7,974 nucleotides of DNA, from the IMG/VR virus record IMGVR_UViG_2648501437_000023, one strand, 5' to 3'. The position numbers and the translations under genes are program-made. Source of the stretch: a virus. Its lineage: Duplodnaviria; Heunggongvirae; Uroviricota; Caudoviricetes. Shown here one piece after another: positions 1-7,974 of the stretch. The notes beneath the pieces were generated by a model. The model was not told where the DNA came from. It did not search any database and saw only the letters and a program-made list of their open reading frames with translations. The first letter of the stretch is position 1. Each line of letters begins with the position of its first letter.

Positions 1-1
1 G

Positions 2-73
2 TACCGCAAAATTCTCGCGGACACTGAGCAGGAAAAGCACCTGAAAAAATTACGAGCCATAAAAAGGAAGTAA
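2..73 (+). CDS. 3' end of an upstream ORF truncated by the window edge (product unknown)
   Basis: Frame open from the window start to TAA at 71-73 (…YRKILADTEQEKHLKKLRAIKRK*). Too short to assign; listed only because it abuts the next small ORF in the same orientation. Confidence 0.2.
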   Translation, partial: YRKILADTEQEKHLKKLRAIKRK

Positions 74-76
74 AGA

Positions 77-223
77 ATGAATAAAGCATTTGAACAATGG
101 GTCCACCAGCGTTACGGCAATCGCTATGACCTGACGCGAGATGTTGACGGCTTCTACTGTCGTGAAGTTGTGAAGCGAATGTTTGACGTGTGGTGCCACT
201 GCCGTGGGCTGAGTGTTATGTGA
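77..223 (+). CDS. small hypothetical protein (48 aa), prophage-associated
   Basis: ATG at 77 to TGA at 221-223 (MNKAFEQWVHQRYGNRYDLTRDVDGFYCREVVKRMFDVWCHCRGLSVM). Not in the supplied ORF track (below its length cutoff). Same strand as, and tightly packed against, the downstream xis-like gene. No family recognised. Confidence 0.35.
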   Translation: MNKAFEQWVHQRYGNRYDLTRDVDGFYCREVVKRMFDVWCHCRGLSVM

Positions 224-231
224 GGTGATGT

Positions 232-441
232 ATGGGGCTGGATTGCGTGCCTATATCAACCTACTGCCGCGACGCGGGAGAAACGGTTGATGCCGTTAAC
301 AAACGGATACAAAGAGGAATATGGAAAGAAGGGGTTCATGTATTAAAAGTCGACGGAGTTAAAGAACGCTGGGTCGACTTAATAGAGGTTTCAAAATGGG
401 CAAGAAAGAACAAGGATTATTATCTCTGCCAAGAGGAGTAA
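232..441 (+). CDS. excisionase-like small DNA-binding protein (putative Xis / recombination directionality factor)
   Basis: 69-aa ORF immediately upstream of, and overlapping by 46 nt, a tyrosine integrase on the same strand. GAGGTGA Shine-Dalgarno at 223-229. Size, basic/aromatic composition and position match prophage Xis-like proteins; the family call is from memory, not a search. Confidence 0.5.
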   Translation: MGLDCVPISTYCRDAGETVDAVNKRIQRGIWKEGVHVLKVDGVKERWVDLIEVSKWARKNKDYYLCQEE

Positions 442-1574
442 CTATTCGTAAGCATAAAACTGCTTCAACACTAGTTATCACTTTCACATATAAAGGGGTT
501 CTTTGCAGGGAGCCCCTGTCTCGGCTTGAGGCAAATACACGTGGTATTAAATATGCTGAGCGCCTGCTAGGGGAGATACAAAATCAGATCGCCAGCGGAA
601 CGTTTGAATATGCGAAATATTTCCCCAGTTCCAAAAAACTGGAGTTATTCGGTGTAGTAAAGAAAACCAAAAATATTAAGTCCTATCTTGATGAATACCT
701 GAAAATTTGCATGAACCGCAATCTGTCGCCGTCAACCATTGGCGGTTACGAAAAATGTCTATCAGCACTATCAGAACTACATAAACTACATGTAACAGAA
801 TTGACGCCTGCGGTACTAAAAAATTGGATAGCCAGCCGAAAAACTAAGCTGAAAACAATCAGGAATAACCTGTCATTTCTGCGCAGCGCCATTGATGAGG
901 CTGTAACTGATGGCCTGTTGACTATTAACCCGGTAACTCTTGTCAGCGCCAGCCGGTATCACGTGGTCGACAGTAAACCGAACGCCGACGATTACGAAGT
1001 TGATCCGTTTGCGCCTGCGGAAACCAGTGCCATATATCAGCACTGCAAGTATCAGGAATGGCAGAATCTGTTCCGCTTCGCCTTCAATACAGGGCTACGC
1101 AGCTCTGAGCTATGCGCATTACGTTGGACCGATATCGACTTTATAGGTAATACAGCGCACATACAGGCGGCCAGTGTCGTAGGGGTACTTAAAGGCACCA
1201 AGACAAAAGCCGGTACCCGTAAGGTGGAGCTGAACAGTGAGGCGCTGGCGGCCCTGCAGGCGCAGAAGCAATACACCTTTATGAAAAGTGAGTTCATATT
1301 CAGCGATCCGAAAACGGGAGATCCCTGGACGAACGCCGACGCTATCCGTAAAAAAGCATGGGTGCCGACCCTGAAAAAAGCTGGTGTGCGCTACCGTAAC
1401 CCGTACCAGACGCGCCACACATTCGCCACCAGACACATTAGCCAGGGTGTAAACCTTTTCTGGCTTGCCGGGCAGATGGGGCATAAGGGGCCGGAAATGC
1501 TGTTCCGCAATTACGGTAAATACCTGGCTGAATACGACGGGAAAACCGCAATGGAATCTGGAATGACTCAATAA
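396..1574 (+). CDS. int: tyrosine recombinase (phage integrase family)
   Basis: 392-aa ORF with AGAGG Shine-Dalgarno 7 nt upstream of ATG 396. C-terminal catalytic signature visible in the translation: GLRSSEL (box I Arg), TRHTFATRH, GHKG, and terminal RNYGKY (nucleophile Tyr). N-terminus (LPRGVTIRKHK…FTYKG) resembles the arm-type DNA-binding domain of enterobacterial prophage integrases. Confidence 0.9.
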   Translation: MGKKEQGLLSLPRGVTIRKHKTASTLVITFTYKGVLCREPLSRLEANTRGIKYAERLLGEIQNQIASGTFEYAKYFPSSKKLELFGVVKKTKNIKSYLDEYLKICMNRNLSPSTIGGYEKCLSALSELHKLHVTELTPAVLKNWIASRKTKLKTIRNNLSFLRSAIDEAVTDGLLTINPVTLVSASRYHVVDSKPNADDYEVDPFAPAETSAIYQHCKYQEWQNLFRFAFNTGLRSSELCALRWTDIDFIGNTAHIQAASVVGVLKGTKTKAGTRKVELNSEALAALQAQKQYTFMKSEFIFSDPKTGDPWTNADAIRKKAWVPTLKKAGVRYRNPYQTRHTFATRHISQGVNLFWLAGQMGHKGPEMLFRNYGKYLAEYDGKTAMESGMTQ

Positions 1575-1652
1575 GACGTTTTTCGCCAAATGGCGTAATG
1601 TTCAAGTCCTTGTTATATGAAGGTATTAACGCAGGAGCCATTCAGCAACCTT

Positions 1653-1994
1653 TTAATGGTAGTTAATTTCCCTGTAGTTCTTCTGCATGTATAGAGCAAT
1701 TGCCGCTTCAATTTTCTTCAGCAGATTACTGCTTACATACTGAGGATACTGATCTGCTGGCTTCACAACATAGCGCAATTTTTCTTTGTTCATGGCGATC
1801 TCAGCGAACGGGATCACGTCACCGTCACGAACCTCATTGTTCAATGTCACAATAAACAGCTGACGTGCCGGGGAGACACGATCACTCAGTCTTCTCACGA
1901 AGAACTCGTTTGCTGTGTTTGAGTCAACAAAAGAACTGACGAGTTGAGTCCGACGCTCAATCGTCTGTATCGATCTTCTCGCTACTGTTCTCAT
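1653..1994 (-). CDS. hypothetical protein (113 aa) between int and the att site; possible moron/cargo gene
   Basis: Minus-strand ORF with AGGAG Shine-Dalgarno (plus-strand CTCCT at 2001-2005) 6 nt upstream of its ATG (1992-1994). Convergent with int. No recognisable motifs. Confidence 0.5.
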   Translation of the reverse strand: MRTVARRSIQTIERRTQLVSSFVDSNTANEFFVRRLSDRVSPARQLFIVTLNNEVRDGDVIPFAEIAMNKEKLRYVVKPADQYPQYVSSNLLKKIEAAIALYMQKNYREINYH

Positions 1995-2010
1995 GCTAGT
2001 CTCCTCAACA

Positions 2011-2071
2011 CTTCACTGGCTGTGCAGTGAAGGTACAAAAAGCCACTGATGATAACAGCGTCATCAGTGGC
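2011..2071 (-). terminator. two adjacent perfect hairpins; the second is followed by a T5 run on the minus strand (possible intrinsic terminator or structured leader)
   Basis: Hairpin 1: cttcactg (2011-2018) / cagtgaag (2025-2032), 8-bp stem, 6-nt loop. Hairpin 2: gccactgatga (2042-2052) / tcatcagtggc (2061-2071), 11-bp perfect stem, 8-nt loop; plus-strand AAAAA at 2037-2041 gives TTTTT directly 3' of the hairpin on the minus strand. Sits just upstream of the minus-strand gene 1653-1994. Confidence 0.3.
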
Positions 2072-2323
2072 CCTTGATGGTGATAACCGCAGTTACCTAA
2101 ATAGTATGATATTACCTTACGGGTAATTCTTCAACGATTGCTCTGAATTGAATAGTCTTGAAGTGCTATGAACAGCACAAAACAGCGCTAATCACCGCCC
2201 CAGTGGCGCCTAAACACTTCAAAATGTTGGACAGAATCAGGACGTTAGAGGTACTACAATATGCACGTAAAATGCACGTGAGGTATTTTAAATTAGAAAA
2301 ATCATTAATATTCAATTGGTTAA

Positions 2324-2364
2324 GAATTTTTCGGATACGGGTTCAACTCCCGCCAGCTCCACCA
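2324..2364 (+). other. ssrA: 3'-terminal fragment of tmRNA (ssrA): T-arm, acceptor 3' strand and CCA; att-site remnant, not an intact tmRNA gene
   Basis: tcggatacgggttcaactcccgccagctccacca matches the enterobacterial tmRNA 3' end as I recall it (…TCGGACGCGGGTTCAACTCCCGCCAGCTCCACCA) with two substitutions. The ~320 nt upstream (2000-2320) contains no tmRNA 5' acceptor strand or tag-peptide reading frame, so only the 3' end is present. Confidence 0.7.
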
Positions 2365-2400
2365 CTTTTTAGTTGTTTGAAGTTCAATGAAGTCTACTAA

Positions 2401-2432
2401 GCCCACACAGCACAAGCTCTGCGGGCTTTTTT
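2401..2432 (+). terminator. possible rho-independent terminator downstream of the ssrA 3' fragment
   Basis: Imperfect hairpin gcccacacag (2401-2410) / ctctgcgggc (2417-2426), 8 of 10 positions paired, followed by TTTTTT at 2427-2432. Confidence 0.35.
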
Positions 2433-2489
2433 ACGTCTATTGTCGTCCAGTGAGAATTGCTGAGAACTACGAGTTATGGCACCCTGAAT

Positions 2490-2526
2490 GGGACCCACTA
2501 AGAAGGGTCCAAAAACCGAGGGTCCC
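2490..2526. promoter_or_regulatory. GGGACCC … GGGTCC … GGGTCCC repeat set overlapping the integrase ribosome-binding site
   Basis: GGGACCC at 2490-2496 is the exact reverse complement of GGGTCCC at 2520-2526; a direct GGGTCC copy sits at 2505-2510, each followed by an A-run. The distal copy overlaps the GAGGG Shine-Dalgarno (2518-2522) of the integrase start at 2530. Confidence 0.25.
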
Positions 2527-2529
2527 AAA

Positions 2530-3759
2530 ATGGCAAAAATCGCTAAGAAGCTCACTGACACTGAAATCAAAAGCACCAAGCCAGCCGATAAAGAAATCAA
2601 CTTGTTTGACGGTGATGGTCTGATTCTACGAATCGCTCCTTTGGCGAAAGGAGGCAAGAAAAATTGGTATTTCAGGTATGCAGTACCAGTGAGCAAGAAA
2701 AGAACCAAAATGAGCCTTGGGACATATCCTCACCTTACCCTTGCAAGAGCCAGAGCCTTACGTGATGAATATCTCTCCTTTCTGGCAAATGGTGTTGATC
2801 CCCAAATCCATAACAACGATAAGGCGAAGGCATTAAAGAGTGCTACTGAGCACACTCTCCAAGCCGTAGCGCGGAAATGGTTAGATGAGAAGGTAAAGAC
2901 ATCAGGTATCTCACAAGACCATGCAGCAGACATCTGGCGCAGCTTAGAGAGAAATGTCTTTCCCGGTCTGGGTAATGTCCCTATCAATGAGATCCGACCT
3001 AAGCTCTTAAAACAACACCTTGATCCTATTGAGCAACGAGGCGTATTGGAAACTCTACGCCGTATCATTTCACGTCTGAATGAAATCTTCCGGTGGGCAG
3101 CTACTGAAGAACTTATTGAGTTCAACCCGGCTGACAACCTTGGTCAAAGATTCAGTAAACCAAAAAAGCAAAATATGCCTGCCCTTCCCCCAAGCGAATT
3201 GCCAAGGTTTATGGAATCTTTGACGAATGCGTCAATCCGGTTGGAAACACGTATGCTAATTGAATGGCAATTGTTGACATGGGTTCGTCCGGGTGAAGCC
3301 GTTCGCGCAAGGTGGTCTGATATTGATACAACCAACAGCATTTGGAACATTCCTGCTGATTTCATGAAAATGAAAAAGCTTCACAAAGTTCCTTTGAGTA
3401 AAGAAGCTTTGCGCATCCTTGAATTAATGAAATCAATAAGTGGGCATAGAGAATGGGTTTTCCCCAGCATAAAAGCGCCTCTTAATCATATGCATGAACA
3501 AACAGCCAACGCAGCTATCATCCGAATGGGGTTCGGAGGCGAGCTTGTAGCTCACGGTATGCGTTCTATTGCACGAACAGCGGCAGAGGAGTCTGGTAAA
3601 TTCAGAGCTGAAGTTCTTGAGGCAGCGCTTGCCCACTCGAAAAAAGATGAAATTATCGCAGCATACAATCGTGCAGAATATCTGATAGAGCGACAGAGTT
3701 TGATGCAATGGTGGAGTGATTACGTTCAAGCTCAAAGATCAAATGCTCTGGTAGCCTAA
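2530..3759 (+). CDS. int: P4-type (IntA/CP4-57-like) tyrosine integrase
   Basis: N-terminus MAKIAKKLTDTEIKSTKPADKEINLFDGDGLILRI matches the P4-family arm-binding domain. Catalytic motifs VRPGEAVRARWSDID, AHGMRSIART, LAHS, AYNRAEY. GAGGG Shine-Dalgarno 7 nt upstream of ATG 2530; the track's 2488 start adds 14 residues with no RBS, so 2530 is preferred. Lies about 165 bp downstream of the ssrA 3' fragment, the typical ssrA-int arrangement. Confidence 0.9.
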   Translation: MAKIAKKLTDTEIKSTKPADKEINLFDGDGLILRIAPLAKGGKKNWYFRYAVPVSKKRTKMSLGTYPHLTLARARALRDEYLSFLANGVDPQIHNNDKAKALKSATEHTLQAVARKWLDEKVKTSGISQDHAADIWRSLERNVFPGLGNVPINEIRPKLLKQHLDPIEQRGVLETLRRIISRLNEIFRWAATEELIEFNPADNLGQRFSKPKKQNMPALPPSELPRFMESLTNASIRLETRMLIEWQLLTWVRPGEAVRARWSDIDTTNSIWNIPADFMKMKKLHKVPLSKEALRILELMKSISGHREWVFPSIKAPLNHMHEQTANAAIIRMGFGGELVAHGMRSIARTAAEESGKFRAEVLEAALAHSKKDEIIAAYNRAEYLIERQSLMQWWSDYVQAQRSNALVA

Positions 3760-3797
3760 GTATCAGAATAGCTAATATAATCCTGAAGGTAAAGAAA

Positions 3798-4214
3798 ATG
3801 GAAACCCTATTCAAAGTTTTTGAAAAATTTAGTTCCAGACCACTTTTTTTTATTTTTTTCGGACTCTCACTTTGTGAATTTTTTCAGAAACAATCTGTTC
3901 TGATGAATCCATCAGCAGATAACATCGCGAAATTATTCGCAGCCATGATATTAGTTGTTTTTTTTACTTGGGGATTTGAATGGCTAATCTTCAAGTTCAA
4001 TGTAAACCTTGAACCTCATGATCAAGGCGATATTGGACCAACAATTGGAACGGCTACTTTAGCTGTATACTTAGTTTATGCCTTTCACTTTCTCAGTGAA
4101 AATCCTGAAGCATTAAATTTAAAGTTATTAACTAACTCTGGCTTTATATACAGCACAACTCTATTATTATTCTCATTAGAATGCATGAAGCTTAGAAGAC
4201 TTAAACAAAAATAA
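3798..4214 (+). CDS. small integral membrane protein (138 aa, 3-4 predicted TM helices), function unknown
   Basis: Hydrophobic stretches PLFFIFFGLSLCEFF, IAKLFAAMILVVFFTWGF, IGTATLAVYLVYAFHFL, GFIYSTTLLLFSL. AT-rich like the downstream operon. Weak RBS, so start and expression are uncertain. Confidence 0.45.
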   Translation: METLFKVFEKFSSRPLFFIFFGLSLCEFFQKQSVLMNPSADNIAKLFAAMILVVFFTWGFEWLIFKFNVNLEPHDQGDIGPTIGTATLAVYLVYAFHFLSENPEALNLKLLTNSGFIYSTTLLLFSLECMKLRRLKQK

Positions 4215-4285
4215 ACAACATCATTGTGATGATAAATATAAAATAGGCATGGCGAAAAAAAATCACCACGCCTAAAATATAATAA

Positions 4286-6052
4286 TTATGGTAGCATCAT
4301 TGATACATAATCCACACCAATCCTTGAGCTATACTGAGACGCTATAGCCTGATATCTTTCTGCATAACCAGTTCTCAGTTGAGATTTAAGTTTGAGTCGG
4401 ACAGGAACATTTTGCACGTTGCCATCCATATTACTTAAAAACACGGCAGAAATAATATTTTTTTCTTCGCCATCAACTGTTGTTCCATGATTCAACACCA
4501 CCATATAATCAACAACAGGAAGCGTTTTATCCCCTTCGAAAATAGAGAGATATTTTCTTTGATTTTTATGCATTACATATATATATTTCGAATGTTCAGC
4601 AAATGGCAATGCTTTACTCTGACTGGCGTTAAAAAGCTCCAGAACTTTAATGAGCCTGTGCGGACTTAATCTTACATGGTGAGGGTCGTTACCCTGAGTA
4701 GGAACCAAATCACATGCCGCAGATACACATAAATACCATTTGTTCGACTCTGTATCAAAGAAAATAGTGCCAGTAGAAATATGACCATCTTCAAAATTCT
4801 TTGAAGACAAATTCATATTTAAAGCATGATACATTTCGTGATAAGTATCATTATTTGATGGCAGATCCATTTTTGAAGAGCAATATTGGAGCAATGCAGC
4901 AACTCCGCTGTTAGCGTATTCATTTGAATAGCTATCAAAAACACTTTTGATAAATTCATCCAGCGTATTATTATTTTTAAGTCTTTGATAAAGCTCTTCT
5001 GATAAATTACCAAATACAAAGTCAATATTTCTACATCTAATATCAGGCGAGTCTGATTTTAATATCTCATTTAACCACGCAGCTTGACCGTAATGATCGT
5101 TAGCCAAATGATTTACAAAAGATAAAGCCTCAGCTTCGATTGCATTCTGAATTTCAGATTTTATTAACTGATAATAAGATGGTTTCCATTCAATGAGAGA
5201 ATCATTGAGAGTTTGCCAAATCCTATCTCCATCGTTTTCATGATCATCTTGAACCTTATGAAATAGGGAGACAAAGATATTACCACATTGAATCCATTTT
5301 ACTCCGCTTTCATCACCCCGAATGACATTGCCAGATGTGTTGCTAGAAATAATTGCATTTCTAGACACAGCATATTCTGCAATCATTTTTGCAATGAAGT
5401 TTTTATCCTTTTGTTCCTCCAACACAGCATCATCATGTATTAATCTTTTAATTCTTCTACAAGGCTTACTGTCTTTAATATAGGCTATTGTTTCATCTCT
5501 TGTGAGAGCTTTATTACCATTATCATTTAAGTTCGGTAATACAACGTCTTCCCAATAACTTTGGACATCTTCATTATCGTAGTCAATGATCAAGCTGTTG
5601 ATATCCAGAGCACCTTTGAGAGTCGATGATATCTGCATCCAAACCGTTTCTAAATTCTCTCTAGTATATATTACAATCATATTTAAATGATCGGAGTCTT
5701 TCAAATCTTGTAATAGTTTAAGTGTTTTATCAGGTGCATTATTATCAAGATGATAATCTACAATAATAAGATCTGATTTTCTAATCCGATCCACATCGAA
5801 ATTAACAGAACCATTGTCAACATCACAAATCATATTTTTAGATTGAAAAAAGCTCTCAAGAGTAGCGGCTCGTTTAGATGAGTCAATTTTGTTGTAGTCT
5901 AAATCAACTTCGTTATTCAACGCCCTGATTGATTCAGAATACGTCAGAAAATCGTCATCAATCATGACAACGGAACGAATTGCATTTTCGCAGAAAGTTT
6001 TCTGGACAAGAGAATTATAATTTGCCACTGTCATATTAGAACTCCACTCCAT
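4286..6052 (-). CDS. response-regulator-like protein: N-terminal receiver (REC) domain plus ~450-aa C-terminal domain of unknown function (candidate effector)
   Basis: 588-aa ORF. REC hallmarks: VVMIDDD (acidic pair, D32-D34), DLIIVDYHLDNNAPDKTLKLL (phospho-acceptor Asp D99; codon checked at 5756-5758), NMIVIYT (conserved Thr), STLK (Lys). Rest of the protein shows no HTH or other recognisable output motif. Alternative start at 6034 (MTVANY…) has a GGAG Shine-Dalgarno 7 nt upstream and sits 1 nt after the kinase stop. Confidence 0.8.
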   Translation of the reverse strand: MEWSSNMTVANYNSLVQKTFCENAIRSVVMIDDDFLTYSESIRALNNEVDLDYNKIDSSKRAATLESFFQSKNMICDVDNGSVNFDVDRIRKSDLIIVDYHLDNNAPDKTLKLLQDLKDSDHLNMIVIYTRENLETVWMQISSTLKGALDINSLIIDYDNEDVQSYWEDVVLPNLNDNGNKALTRDETIAYIKDSKPCRRIKRLIHDDAVLEEQKDKNFIAKMIAEYAVSRNAIISSNTSGNVIRGDESGVKWIQCGNIFVSLFHKVQDDHENDGDRIWQTLNDSLIEWKPSYYQLIKSEIQNAIEAEALSFVNHLANDHYGQAAWLNEILKSDSPDIRCRNIDFVFGNLSEELYQRLKNNNTLDEFIKSVFDSYSNEYANSGVAALLQYCSSKMDLPSNNDTYHEMYHALNMNLSSKNFEDGHISTGTIFFDTESNKWYLCVSAACDLVPTQGNDPHHVRLSPHRLIKVLELFNASQSKALPFAEHSKYIYVMHKNQRKYLSIFEGDKTLPVVDYMVVLNHGTTVDGEEKNIISAVFLSNMDGNVQNVPVRLKLKSQLRTGYAERYQAIASQYSSRIGVDYVSMMLP

Positions 6053-7754
6053 TGAACTGGATCACAAAATTAGCGCCATCTTTTATTAAATAGTTATCGC
6101 CTTCATCAGGTTCTGAATACCATATTTTATGATGTGCAACAGCAAGGTTTTCTCGACATAGATACAGACCTACCCCATGTCCATTTGCTCTTTTGCTATA
6201 AAATAGTTCAAATAGTCGCGGGATATCATCGGTATCAATTGCCGGACCAGAATTTGCTATGATAACCAAAGAATTCACAAAACCAATCTTTATGAGCCTA
6301 TTATTTGACAGACTGACCCAATACATTGCATTGTTGATAATATTAGTAAAAACAGGATAGATCCTTGATGGTATATCTGTTATTGCGATTTGCTTAAACT
6401 CTTCACTAAATTCAATAGTTATTCGTTGCCGTTCGAAACGCTCCCCAAAGAACTTCAGGACATAATCCATGATATTTTTTCCAGTTATTCTCTGCCTGGA
6501 TTGATAACCTGATATTTTCAAAGGTGATAAGAAACGTATTTGTTGAGTAAGCGATCTGTGAGCATTTAACGCCAATGAAAAACCAGGGTGTTCTTTTACA
6601 GAAGTAGGAAGAGAGTTTAGTCCTCTGGTTACCATAGAATCCATTTCTTCAAGTTCATGAGATATTATCTCAACACTAATACCTAACTGTGCAAGCGCGT
6701 TTAAACTTTTAGCTTTTTCTTCAAAATATGAGCGTTCTTCTTCAGATAATGAGAATGCTGAATCTAAGTTTATACCTTCAAATAATCTATCGAGACCTTT
6801 TATTATTGATTGATATTTGAAAGTTAGGGTATCAACTGACTCAACATATAAACTATCGAGCAAATTAAACACATTTTCAATTTGTGAATCATTATCTATT
6901 GAATCAACAACTGATATAGTTTTAGCATAATAATCACTTCGATCATCCTTTATTTCATCGGCCCATTTTTTTAAAAGAGAATGTATCTTCTCCTCTATCG
7001 TGTTATTAAACTTAGTTAGTTTAGAATTAATAATACCTTGATTTTTTTCAAGGTGATTTTTCGCTGACAATGAAGGCTCAAGTTTATTTAATTCAGAATC
7101 AAGTTTATTAATTGCTAACTTCATTTGTAGAATATACGCAGAGAACTCATTAAATTTATCTCTGTAGTCTCTATATTTCTCTTCATACATTCCAAGTTTT
7201 GGAGGTTTGATAGGCGTTTTAATTTCACTGCGCAACGCATCTAAGTTTGTAAGATCACTGTCTATAATTTTAAGATAGTTTAAATCTAACGAACCATCAG
7301 TTTTATCAAGCTTAGTTTTCAGCCTTTTAACAGCCTCCAAGGAAGCATCAAGAACTGGTGTCTGATTCTTCAAAGCTTCTGAAAAACTTTTTTGTGTTGA
7401 TTTTCGAGCTTGTTGTTGAGCAGATTTTCTTAACTCTTTTTCACGCTTAACTTGTTCTAAAAGCTCTTTACGGTCATCAGAACGTGAACCAAAAAATCTA
7501 TCAGCAAGTTCAGTTAACAAATTAGATATAATAGTTTTCAGTTCTCTTGCAGCCTGGTTTCTTATGAATCCCTCTCTCCCCGACTTATCTTTCAGCTCTT
7601 TATTACTGGATTGAGTAATTCCAATATAACCAAAAATCCTTCTATTAGACCAATAATATCGCCCTGCATTCCATGAACGTCTTTCTTCTATCTGGAAGAA
7701 ATCATTATCTACTCGACCATAAGGTAATACTCTCAAGCTATCCCTAAAAATCAT
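6036..7754 (-). CDS. soluble histidine-kinase-like protein: ~350-aa coiled-coil-rich N-terminal region, HisKA-like H-box, HATPase_c domain
   Basis: 572-aa ORF. H-box GISVEIISHELEEM (His366; codon checked at 6657-6659). N-box PVFTNIINNAMYW, G1 IANSGPAID, F-box LFELFYSKR, G2 GHGVGL (codons checked at 6165-6182). No hydrophobic TM segments; N-terminal half is K/E/L-rich. Stop overlaps the start of the downstream REC gene. Confidence 0.8.
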   Translation of the reverse strand: MIFRDSLRVLPYGRVDNDFFQIEERRSWNAGRYYWSNRRIFGYIGITQSSNKELKDKSGREGFIRNQAARELKTIISNLLTELADRFFGSRSDDRKELLEQVKREKELRKSAQQQARKSTQKSFSEALKNQTPVLDASLEAVKRLKTKLDKTDGSLDLNYLKIIDSDLTNLDALRSEIKTPIKPPKLGMYEEKYRDYRDKFNEFSAYILQMKLAINKLDSELNKLEPSLSAKNHLEKNQGIINSKLTKFNNTIEEKIHSLLKKWADEIKDDRSDYYAKTISVVDSIDNDSQIENVFNLLDSLYVESVDTLTFKYQSIIKGLDRLFEGINLDSAFSLSEEERSYFEEKAKSLNALAQLGISVEIISHELEEMDSMVTRGLNSLPTSVKEHPGFSLALNAHRSLTQQIRFLSPLKISGYQSRQRITGKNIMDYVLKFFGERFERQRITIEFSEEFKQIAITDIPSRIYPVFTNIINNAMYWVSLSNNRLIKIGFVNSLVIIANSGPAIDTDDIPRLFELFYSKRANGHGVGLYLCRENLAVAHHKIWYSEPDEGDNYLIKDGANFVIQFNGVEF

Positions 7755-7974
7755 TAGTCCTGCATACTTTTTGGCCTTAAGATCAAAGTGGGAATGTTCA
7801 CGTTCAGTATGTGATGTATTTTGTGAAAGGAATTCAAACGTTCCTATCTGAAGCTCAAATGGGCCGACCCCTGCGTGATCCTACCCACGTAATATGGACA
7901 CAGGCCTAAGCGAGGTTCTTGTTTTCAAATTGTTCCGGACTGAGGCCGCCACACCAACTGTGCCGCCGCCACCG

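Follow-up and report, generated by a model that had tools for sequence, protein, structure and literature searches.

Probable remnant of a mobilizable genomic island at the ssrA locus of Escherichia coli, with an IS3-truncated methylase, paraMORC-kinase and receiver operon

Genes and features of the locus

The sequence analysed here, referred to as the window, is the whole stretch of 7,974 nucleotides. It is Escherichia coli DNA of an O103/O26-like type and runs from the end of a lambdoid prophage through 36 nt of ssrA, a P4-type integrase, a small hydrophobic ORF (TM138), a Response_reg_2 gene (RR) and a HEF_HK/HATPase_c gene (HK) to an IS3 element. Its features are as follows.

1-2328, plus strand: right end of an ssrA-integrated lambdoid prophage (context, outside the island)
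232-441: xis-like ORF of the prophage
396-1574: Int1, the prophage integrase (Pfam Arm-DNA-bind_2 and Phage_integrase)
1653-1994, minus strand: 113-aa ORF in the variable int-att 'moron' slot of the prophage
2329-2364, plus strand: last 36 nt of ssrA (T-arm, acceptor 3' strand), aligned to the intact ssrA of strain L65
2365-2432, plus strand: spacer 3' of ssrA that contains the ssrA terminator hairpin; the identical stretch follows intact ssrA in L65
2530-3759, plus strand: Int2, P4-type tyrosine integrase, 409 aa from the RefSeq start (WP_001341819.1)
3798-4214, plus strand: TM138, 138-aa hydrophobic ORF at the integrase/cargo junction
4244-4274, minus strand: terminator-like hairpin (12-bp stem and T-run) directly past the RR stop, a pattern match from a consensus scan
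4286-6034, minus strand: RR, Response_reg_2 protein, 582 aa, intact ORF
6036-7875, minus strand: HK remnant, 5'-truncated histidine-kinase-like gene, codons 376-988 of a 988-aa parent
6036-7754, minus strand: annotated HK ORF, 572 aa, starting at an internal Met
7876-7974, minus strand: terminal 99 nt of IS3, with inverted repeat and transposase gene end

Prophage genes lie upstream in the RefSeq context of two E. coli loci (L001 and L002), and homology to non-lysogen strains begins only at 2329. The prophage left the segment 2329-2364 as its attR copy, and the P4-type island originally attached here. An intact ssrA within the window was considered and dropped: ARAGORN detected no tmRNA in the window, the Rfam tmRNA match at the ssrA end is partial (18.6 bits), and the alignment shows 36 nt only. 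The placement of the integrase at ssrA in the initial annotation therefore holds for the integrase, which lies directly 3' of the ssrA end, but not for an intact ssrA gene in the window. An IsrM gene at 2365-2432 was likewise rejected: the Rfam score is 53 bits where the gathering score is 376, and the match is confined to the two ends of the model, 253 model positions being absent.

Int2, whose longest ORF begins at 2488, contains Arm-DNA-bind_3 (E 2.2e-22), Phage_int_M and Phage_integrase domains (Pfam) and starts 165 nt after the ssrA 3' end. It is found about 165 nt past intact ssrA in prophage-free strains (L65, 774 and others), and the integrase also follows intact ssrA at loci L003 and L006. 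A second copy of the ssrA core, sought as a distal att repeat with up to 4 mismatches, was absent from the window and from loci L001, L002 and L010; IS3 and a truncated ygaQ now stand where the island would have its distal part.

TM138 has one strong hydrophobic segment (aa 42-64) and gave no match in Pfam, NCBIfam or PADLOC. The 52 relatives found are all at least 60% identical, and those bearing a source name are all from Enterobacterales. The gene adjoins RR in islands with different integrases too; it also accompanies Int2-type integrases in islands with Kiwa or Lamassu-like cargo, and is not specific to the kinase/REC pair.

RR, listed as an ORF at 4286-6052 on the minus strand, matches Response_reg_2 (PF19192, E 3.6e-31) and consists of a REC-like receiver with a large helical insertion, a helical bundle and a C-terminal beta domain. 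The HK remnant matches HEF_HK (PF19191, E 1e-5, 26.3 bits, cutoff 24.1) and HATPase_c (PF02518, E 1.9e-11). Its C-terminal part, DHp included, aligns with the ThkA sensor kinase (3a0r), and a PDB sequence search with HK returned generic kinase cores only. The two genes adjoin on the minus strand (HK stop 6036-6038, RR start 6034). None of the conserved REC residues (acidic pair, phospho-acceptor Asp, Thr and Lys) has been lost from the receiver, and the kinase retains its H-box and ATP-binding motifs; His-to-Asp phosphotransfer from HK to RR may take place, as predicted from this residue conservation.

The output half of RR carries no Pfam or NCBIfam domain beyond the receiver, and NCBIfam returned nothing for either RR or the 113-aa prophage ORF. 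RR has no relative in the PDB by sequence, and Foldseek gave no significant match for its C-terminal domain. Comparison of this domain with the CcdB/MazF/Kid fold produced grey-zone scores, with neither sequence similarity nor mappable catalytic residues, and a CcdB/MazF-like fold is treated here as a lead only. An exhaustive phmmer search with the C-terminal 296 aa, intended to reveal domain fusions, returned almost exclusively proteins of the same ~570-640-aa architecture; for this effector half, a set of 1.84 billion proteins contains about 255 matching representative clusters. In PADLOC-DB v2.0.0, RR gave one 15.8-bit match (E 0.0026) to an unrelated candidate TM model.

Composition and distribution of the cargo

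The cargo (3798-7860) has a GC content of 33.7% (TM138 32.1%, RR 34.3%, HK remnant 34.3%) and a GC3 of 25-28%. The corresponding GC values are 44.8% for Int2 (2530-3759; GC3 41%), 47.6% for Int1 (396-1574), 56% for the IS3 end and 53.8% for the flanking E. coli core genes (glaH to stpA, locus L001); GC3 is 61-70% across the five core genes measured (glaH, lhgO, gabD, gabT and gabP). The drop in GC starts at about 3600-3800, at the end of int2, so that the cargo is indeed more AT-rich than both integrase regions, as had been judged by eye. The right limit of 7860 set at that stage fell near the real junction, IS3 beginning at 7876.

The cargo is carried at an identity of at least 99% by 560 of 5426 complete E. 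coli genomes (~10%), including O26, O103 and O111 STEC and E. coli W. Because its GC and GC3 are strongly deviant and so few of the complete E. coli genomes carry it, the AT-rich cargo is horizontally acquired foreign DNA, in agreement with the initial annotation. It is not a segment conserved in all relatives with host-like composition.

Cargo exchange at the tmRNA site

The tmRNA locus of E. coli has been described as defence hotspot #9 (Hochhauser et al. 2023, PMC10121019). Behind related integrases we found Lamassu LmuA/B/C with PDC-S25 (L014), a Lamassu-like set with Hxs (L012), Kiwa (KwaA/KwaB; L065-L068) and type I R-M (L062). Homology to the window ends at 3725, 3738, 4223 or 4390, island by island, the last breakpoint corresponding to a 105-nt scar of the RR 3' end left behind. 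Comparison of the ssrA-int locus across strains thus revealed cargo swapped for known defence systems, and supports the view, already put forward in the initial annotation, of a variable slot behind related P4-type integrases that holds such systems in other strains. The locus is a clean case of cargo swapping at graded breakpoints behind a single integrase family.

The island shares with hotspot #9 and the K-12 CP4-57 position the same chromosomal site, from ssrA to ygaQ/glaH, where prophage and integrative mobilizable element stand in tandem and defence systems occur as variable cargo. There is no difference in kind; the island in the window is one further, degraded occupant.

The intact three-gene module

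Intact copies of the island were found in Klebsiella, Serratia and Salmonella. At locus L003, which reaches the flanking core genes, the order is smpB, ssrA, int, TM138, RR, a 988-aa HK and a DNA methylase, followed further on by a relaxase and two further recombinases. The same island lies behind ssrA at L006 and L007, where the flank is a type I secretion/BapA-like cluster, not smpB. In other genomes the module occurs on islands at tRNA-Leu and tRNA-Ser sites.

The loci with enough flank numbered 40 and came from Gamma-, Alpha- and Betaproteobacteria, Planctomycetota and Myxococcota. RR was directly preceded by a full-length HK, including the GHKL part, in all 40; a C5 methylase stood directly upstream of HK in 25 and directly downstream of RR in 15. 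Methylase, paraMORC-kinase and REC-effector form a three-gene unit, which is compact and rare. The full-length kinase is a soluble fusion of ~990 aa, comprising a paraMORC-type GHKL ATPase, a coiled coil, a His-containing DHp (HEF_HK) and the kinase ATPase. Its GHKL part resembles the N-terminus of the BbrUII/HgiDII restriction enzymes (E 1.5e-13), a match that falls below the family cutoff (50 bits against 550 in NCBIfam) and covers only residues 13-138. The methylase is dcm-type and is the sole member of the module to match generic PADLOC models (MTase_II/DruM/DrmMII); full-length HK, its remnant and TM138 all remained without a match in PADLOC-DB v2.0.0, which has no model for HK or RR.

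Truncation of the E. coli copy

The HK remnant is 99% identical to residues 376-988 of a 988-aa homologue (P0004), and its frame is open for 42 codons above the annotated Met, as far as IS3. The DNA junction maps to 7875/7876, where IS3 cuts the gene at codon 376; the GHKL (HATPase_c_3) part is absent from the window. The C-terminus of the IS3 transposase is visible on translation, RefSeq annotates IS3 at the junction, and a 5'-truncated ygaQ-like amylase pseudogene follows it (RefSeq). IS3 and then truncated ygaQ were present in all four complete cargo-bearing E. coli genomes inspected (L001, L002, L010 and L011). No methylase was found in the window or the surrounding E. coli loci, and the DNA of the methylase and the HK 5' part is absent from all 5426 E. 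coli genomes. What IS3 has left of a three-gene operon is its 3' end, the kinase/REC pair. The earlier suggestion that the pair is defence cargo is unsupported in that form: the system is incomplete, since its methylase is gone and the kinase lacks the half with the GHKL sensor.

Given the same scar in 4/4 genomes and the missing DNA in 0/5426, the E. coli copy is most likely an inert remnant, non-functional for defence and surviving as a passenger. ISVsa5 interrupts RR in strain 774, and an IS1-caused deletion was found in CH427. Both the RR ORF and the kinase ORF of 572 codons remain unbroken in most of the 560 genomes; among copies at least 99.8% alike, this may reflect recent origin alone. 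The substitution counts that bear on decay are very small: comparisons among E. coli copies gave 0 synonymous and 1-3 nonsynonymous differences each in RR and the HK remnant, and comparison with intact copies gave 4 synonymous and 7 nonsynonymous changes in the HK remnant versus 12 and 2 in RR (Fisher p = 0.017). The corresponding counts for Int2 were 21-24 and 2-7. Between IS3 and the internal Met a scan gave no consensus promoter, and its matches were no more numerous than in shuffled sequence; transcription of the pair could start from an internal promoter or from one that reads outward from IS3.

Alternatively, RR and HK might be a complete, working two-gene defence or signalling system of the 'group 2' type (HEF_HK and HATPase_c), in which GHKL part and methylase are dispensable. 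Such a system would be in keeping with the 34 of 222 HEF_HK proteins that have no N-terminal HATPase_c_3 (Bellieny-Rabelo et al., PMC8011034), with two intact ORFs annotated as proteins in RefSeq, with the conserved His and Asp residues and with the retention of the pair in ~10% of complete E. coli genomes. However, IS3 cuts within an open frame relative to 99%-identical full-length genes, the GHKL part and methylase are present in 40/40 informative loci elsewhere, and changes within E. coli are exclusively nonsynonymous. Moreover, at least one '572-aa' kinase of another genus (L070) proved to be a frameshift-split full-length gene, so that broken genes, annotated as they stand, may account for most of 'group 2'. 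We regard a working pair as unlikely. The remnant should not be tallied as a working two-component or defence system, and the RefSeq names 'ATP-binding protein' and 'response regulator receiver domain' mask a truncated pseudogene in ~10% of complete E. coli genomes.

Origin and possible function of the module

With a probability of roughly 0.8, the region is the decayed remnant of a mobilizable genomic island at the ssrA 3' end, with a P4-type integrase and an IS3-truncated, most likely inert three-gene operon. The P4-type integrase would have inserted the island into the ssrA 3' end, with the operon in the integrase-proximal cargo slot that it fills in intact copies. In E. coli, the methylase would then have been lost in an IS3-associated deletion, along with the half of the kinase gene that encodes the GHKL sensor, the remainder of the island with its relaxase and extra recombinases, and the 5' end of the chromosomal ygaQ. 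That would leave the integrase, TM138, the receiver gene, still intact, and a kinase gene without its head. Residual or re-wired activity of the pair may be conceivable, since the ORFs are mostly intact and the REC residues, H-box and ATP-binding motifs are kept.

In the intact module, the methylase would mark self DNA and the MORC-like GHKL ATPase would sense unmodified or foreign DNA. Sensing would lead to His autophosphorylation and transfer to the receiver Asp, and phosphorylation would free the C-terminal effector, which might target nucleic acids or act as a toxin of the CcdB/MazF kind. A defence role for the intact module is predicted. It is tempting, if tentative, to see in the parent module an uncharacterised class of methylation-guided immunity, in which a MORC-like DNA sensor would signal foreign DNA by His-Asp phosphotransfer, and the receiver-gated effector would bear a novel domain, possibly CcdB/MazF-like; the E. 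coli allele would then be sensor-less, methylase-less and perhaps residually active.

The parent module could instead serve the mobile element as a two-component system for regulation or epigenetic control, for example of island maintenance or transfer, the remnant then being a regulatory leftover. Its place in mobilizable islands beside relaxase genes, the output domain outside any recognised family, the lack of a PADLOC model for HK or RR and the predicted status of the family's defence role are compatible with regulation. However, the module is obligately coupled to a C5 methylase, has a GHKL part similar to GHKL-type restriction enzymes, shares its slot with Kiwa, Lamassu and type I R-M, and moves among unrelated islands. 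Furthermore, published work places the family's genes preferentially near R-M genes and Vsr (PMC8011034), and GHKL-Shedu (VcSduA) is a validated defence system (PMC12137116). A purely regulatory role appears quite improbable. That the cargo is ancestral E. coli DNA, AT-rich through local mutational bias or as an H-NS-silenced native region, would fit the constant position of the cargo, with ssrA on one side and glaH on the other wherever it was inspected in E. coli, but is already contradicted by its distribution, with 99%-identical copies within an integrase- and relaxase-bearing island in Klebsiella, Serratia and Salmonella, the module on islands at tRNA-Leu and tRNA-Ser sites, the site empty or filled with other cargo in other strains, and carriage by just 560 of 5426 E. 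coli genomes.

The useful lead for defence biology is the intact module of Klebsiella, Serratia and Salmonella, which is predicted to couple DNA methylation, a MORC-type ATPase and a phosphorelay.

Comparison with known systems

The pair in the window belongs to the already known 'TCS-like' module, the Response_reg_2/HEF_HK pair described by Bellieny-Rabelo, Pretorius & Moleleki 2021 (PMC8011034), whose study already covered E. coli members, predicted a defence role and reported enrichment near R-M genes and Vsr. On experimental validation of the module in defence, the literature searched offered only predictions: that of 2021 and, in the legend of a DefensePredictor figure, one for HATPase/REC that is itself unvalidated. 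The window shares with the TCS-like elements the same Pfam families (PF19192, and PF19191 with HATPase_c), adjacent and apparently translationally coupled genes, a soluble kinase and the association with C5 methylase/R-M. Unlike the predominant 'group 1' kinase architecture, with its N-terminal HATPase_c_3 (paraMORC GHKL; PMC8011034), the window copy has neither this domain nor a neighbouring methylase, because it was truncated by IS3. Methylases were reported as frequent neighbours (PMC8011034), whereas here one was adjacent in 40/40 informative loci, and the unit therefore has three genes.

The parent module also resembles the paraMORC/MORC GHKL ATPases of R-M systems (Iyer, Abhiman & Aravind 2008, PMC2292703), a group that includes GHKL-Shedu VcSduA (PMC12137116), in the linkage of its GHKL part to a cytosine methylase and in its mobile, defence-type contexts. 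It differs from them in that a histidine-kinase core takes the place of the nuclease as fusion partner of the GHKL part, and the presumed effector sits on another protein, the receiver; the window has lost the GHKL part by deletion.

Detocs, a defensive two-component system, combines an infection-sensing kinase with a receiver-domain protein bearing an effector. It has a stand-alone buffer receiver (DtcB) and a PNP effector, without a methylase partner or a GHKL sensor. No family relationship between the module and Detocs was found; the likeness is one of principle, in the same kinase/receiver-effector logic. In contrast to Detocs, the module has no DtcB-type buffer receiver or PNP effector and uses other receiver and DHp families, and its parent form adds a methylase partner and a GHKL sensor.

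Location and composition of the island

The window is E. coli chromosomal DNA. O103:H2 strain PV16-126 aligns along the whole window with an overall identity of 98.6%, and 91% of the window aligns at about 98% identity to O26:H11 strain 11368 and to numerous further STEC. In RefSeq context it is flanked by a lambdoid prophage on one side and the core genes glaH-lhgO-gabDTP on the other, a position that corresponds to the ssrA/CP4-57 site of K-12.

Features of the window
1-2328: right end of the lambdoid prophage, with an xis-like ORF, the integrase Int1 (domains Arm-DNA-bind_2 and Phage_integrase) and, in a short variable slot, a 113-aa ORF
2329-2364: terminal 36 nt of ssrA
2530-3759: Int2, P4-type integrase
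3798-4214: TM138, hydrophobic 138-aa ORF
4286-6034, minus strand: RR, Response_reg_2 protein
6036-7875, minus strand: HK, HEF_HK/HATPase_c gene
7876-7974: end of an IS3 element

Against the best-matching complete E. coli genome, identity was only 93% over 6-1566 and 99.9% over 1561-7974. The lambdoid integrase gene has a recombination breakpoint at its 3' end (1561-1566), and the source-strain prophage is therefore unlike that of any complete genome in the collection.

The initial annotation described an AT-rich cargo (3798-7860) behind a P4-type integrase at ssrA. The difference in composition is real and large: the cargo has 33.7% GC (GC3 25-28%), compared with 44.8% in Int2, 47.6% in Int1 and 53.8% in the adjoining core genes (GC3 61-70% across the five measured, glaH to gabP). 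The position at ssrA was also correct, but the window holds no full copy of this gene: ARAGORN found no tmRNA in it, and alignment to intact ssrA recovered only the terminal 36 nt, the end of the copy displaced by integration of the lambdoid prophage. In strains lacking this prophage, intact ssrA is directly followed by the same integrase (99.9% identical).

A match to the IsrM sRNA at 2355-2432 (plus strand) was rejected as a gene: Rfam scored it at 53 bits, where the gathering score is 376. Only ~20 positions at the start of the model and ~55 at its end are covered, with 253 missing, and the DNA matched is the ssrA 3' end and its terminator. Salmonella IsrM probably lies at the equivalent ssrA-att/integrase junction.

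A truncated kinase from a three-gene module

RR and HK belong to PF19192 and PF19191, respectively, defined in 2021 by Bellieny-Rabelo et al. as a predicted cytoplasmic 'two-component-system-like' pair whose genes are linked in 91.6% of 644 loci and over-represented in the vicinity of C5 methylases, R-M genes and Vsr, the commonest kinase architecture being HATPase_c_3 + HEF_HK + HATPase_c (PMC8011034). The HK gene in the window is truncated. Upstream of the annotated Met of its 572-aa ORF, 42 further open codons reach the IS3 inverted repeat; the product, these codons included, aligns from residue 376 of 988-aa homologues in Klebsiella, Serratia and Salmonella (99% identical), and nucleotide similarity to the intact gene ends exactly where IS3 begins. 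The 375 lost codons correspond to the HATPase_c_3 (paraMORC GHKL) domain.

Intact copies, 99% identical, lie in an island directly 3' of ssrA. At L003, the locus that extends into the flanking core genes, the order is smpB, ssrA, Int2, TM138, RR, HK (988 aa), a C5 DNA methylase overlapping the HK start, several small ORFs, a relaxase, further ORFs and two more tyrosine recombinases. The intact island is an integrative mobilizable element. When one genome was scanned per species, 46 loci with RR relatives were recovered, 40 of them with enough flank, and in all 40 a full-length HK including the GHKL part immediately precedes the RR gene; a C5 methylase, of the dcm type, lies immediately upstream of HK in 25 and immediately downstream of RR in the other 15. 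These informative loci span Gamma-, Alpha- and Betaproteobacteria, Planctomycetota and Myxococcota. The module occurs in islands at ssrA, tRNA-Leu(CAA) and tRNA-Ser and in an ICE-like element, and its GC is clearly below that of its flanks in low- and mid-GC hosts. In Salmonella (L064, 526-1972 and 7001-13474), a second version of the TM138-RR-HK-methylase block (72-73% identical) lies inside an ICE-like element with TrbI, DUF3438 and DUF2895, where its neighbours are AbiEii and a short integrase of another kind; mobile elements that are unrelated to each other thus exchange the cassette.

The sole locus type in the scanned set without the GHKL part and the methylase is that of E. coli. A 5.6-kb contig labelled as a Bacteroidales MAG (DAIPZW010000118.1) is all but identical to the E. 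coli remnant: its kinase is cut in the same way, and Int2 and the aligned part of TM138 match at 100%, although the full 417 nt of TM138 align with a single gap. It is probably an E. coli contig that was mis-binned.

Kinase breakage also occurs elsewhere. In K. pneumoniae CP141543 (L070 4734-7719), with methylase and RR intact, the kinase is divided between a 314-aa GHKL ORF and one of 572 aa whose start is the internal Met used in E. coli. At least sometimes, then, the 572-aa 'ATP-binding proteins' of other genera are frameshift-split full-length genes, and this split is a hint of recurrent kinase inactivation. The same kind of breakage may account for several 572-aa proteins (P0079-P0088) in Salmonella, Pectobacterium, Yersinia and Morganella.

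Condition of the E. coli copies

Past HK codon 376, the E. coli copies continue into IS3 and then a 5'-truncated ygaQ-like pseudogene, a junction that implies one IS3-associated deletion. This event took away the methylase, the kinase's sensor half, the distal att along with the mobilization backbone, and part of a chromosomal gene; a search for a second ssrA core copy found none remaining. At least 80% of the cargo is present at ≥99% identity in 560 of 5426 complete E. coli genomes. The same IS3 junction was seen in all four inspected complete genomes with the cargo (L001, L002, L010, L011), and DNA of the methylase and HK 5' region was found in none of the 5426. Some copies are eroded further: in strain 774 the RR gene is interrupted by ISVsa5, and an IS1 deletion removed everything beyond TM138 in CH427.

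Among E. coli copies, every difference in RR and the HK remnant is nonsynonymous, with 1-3 such changes and no synonymous one in each comparison. Relative to the intact copies, the HK remnant carries 4 synonymous and 7 nonsynonymous changes, compared with 12 and 2 in RR and 22 and 2 in Int2 (HK versus RR, Fisher p = 0.017), a pattern that suggests relaxed constraint, although the counts are small. The window copy is most likely an inert remnant, since the sensor and the self-marking enzyme are lost, a scan between IS3 and the HK internal Met found no consensus promoter (weak evidence), and the island cannot excise. Its wide persistence would also fit inactivation, because an active restriction-like system without its methylase should be harmful.

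Cargo exchange at the ssrA hotspot

P4-type integrases related to Int2 at the same site are followed by different cargo.

Cargo behind integrases related to Int2 (percentages, identity to Int2)
E. coli 23CRST026, 95%: Lamassu (LmuA/C/B) and PDC-S25 (SIR2), then the same relaxase/recombinase backbone
L065-L068, 82%: TM138, an AAA_13 ATPase and Kiwa (KwaA/KwaB)
XJ6.2, 83%: type I R-M
O157 strain 493/89, 96%: TM138, DUF6119, hxsABCD and a Lamassu-like set
BL21, 80%: a recombinase and two ParB-like genes

Homology to the window stops at graded breakpoints, at 3725 or 3738 (3' end of the integrase gene), 4223 (past TM138) and 4390, the expected trace of repeated cargo replacement. In strain 493/89 (L012 14418-14589, window 4215-4390), it runs past TM138 into the last 105 nt of RR, followed by a frameshifted DUF6119 gene and hxsABCD; this scar shows that the island once had the RR module and that its cargo was later replaced.

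The horizontal origin and hotspot architecture proposed initially hold, with Lamassu, Kiwa and type I R-M behind related integrases. The accompanying view of the kinase/REC pair as defence cargo requires revision, as this pair is the truncated tail of a predicted three-gene methylase-linked module.

No evidence was found that TM138, also proposed as defence cargo, has a defence role of its own. Domain and defence profile searches gave it no family assignment, and its hydrophobicity profile has one strong segment. All 52 relatives are at least 60% identical, and all those with a named source are from Enterobacterales. It is kept beside the integrase where the cargo is Kiwa or Lamassu-like, and in islands with other integrases TM138, RR and HK form one block (72-73% nucleotide identity) starting just upstream of TM138. 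Whether it belongs with the integrase or with the module is thus ambiguous; it may be an accessory gene of the latter that remains as a scar.

The slot between the lambdoid integrase and attR is also variable (window 1438-2328, L001 13611-14731, L002 14049-14957, L013 8508-10396). In the window it holds the 113-aa ORF (1653-1994, minus strand), which has no family match, and no more than the initial 27 codons of a gene that is intact in PV16-126 (255 aa); elsewhere it holds a DUF4760 gene (O26 11368, O157 493/89) or a STAS-like and two hypothetical genes (CH427). This slot is possibly a second small cargo hotspot. In E. coli WS1933D (L063 635-4361), IS100 links a truncated ssrA-side integrase to a 5'-truncated casA of type I-E CRISPR-Cas, which implies that an IS-mediated event deleted or rearranged a large stretch from ssrA to cas.

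Potential function of the intact module

Past its receiver, RR continues into a helical bundle and ends in a beta domain, with invariant residues C436, C441, D442, P445, Q552, R554, Y557, R571, G573 and D575. Foldseek against the PDB gave no significant match, and a sequence search of the PDB found no relative. Exhaustive phmmer with the last 296 residues, run over 1.84 billion proteins, recovered no more than 255 representative clusters, nearly all with RR's own architecture; the C-terminal domain is therefore family-specific. A toxin-like fold is a lead only.

The three-gene module is predicted to act in defence, by a mechanism suggested by its domain content and obligate gene linkage. The methylase would mark self DNA, and the MORC-like GHKL clamp would sense unmodified incoming DNA; this would trigger HEF_HK autophosphorylation on its His, followed by phosphotransfer to the Asp of the receiver, and phosphorylation would unleash the C-terminal effector. 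A literature search for experimental work on the three-gene module found no such paper, and the intact module of other Enterobacterales is the part worth experiment.

The GHKL part has sub-threshold similarity to the N-terminus of the BbrUII/HgiDII restriction enzymes. The hotspot and the gene pair have each been published before; new here are the IS3 truncation common to the inspected E. coli copies, with the missing DNA absent from all 5426 complete genomes, the graded cargo-swap breakpoints, and the methylase as the constant third component in every informative locus.
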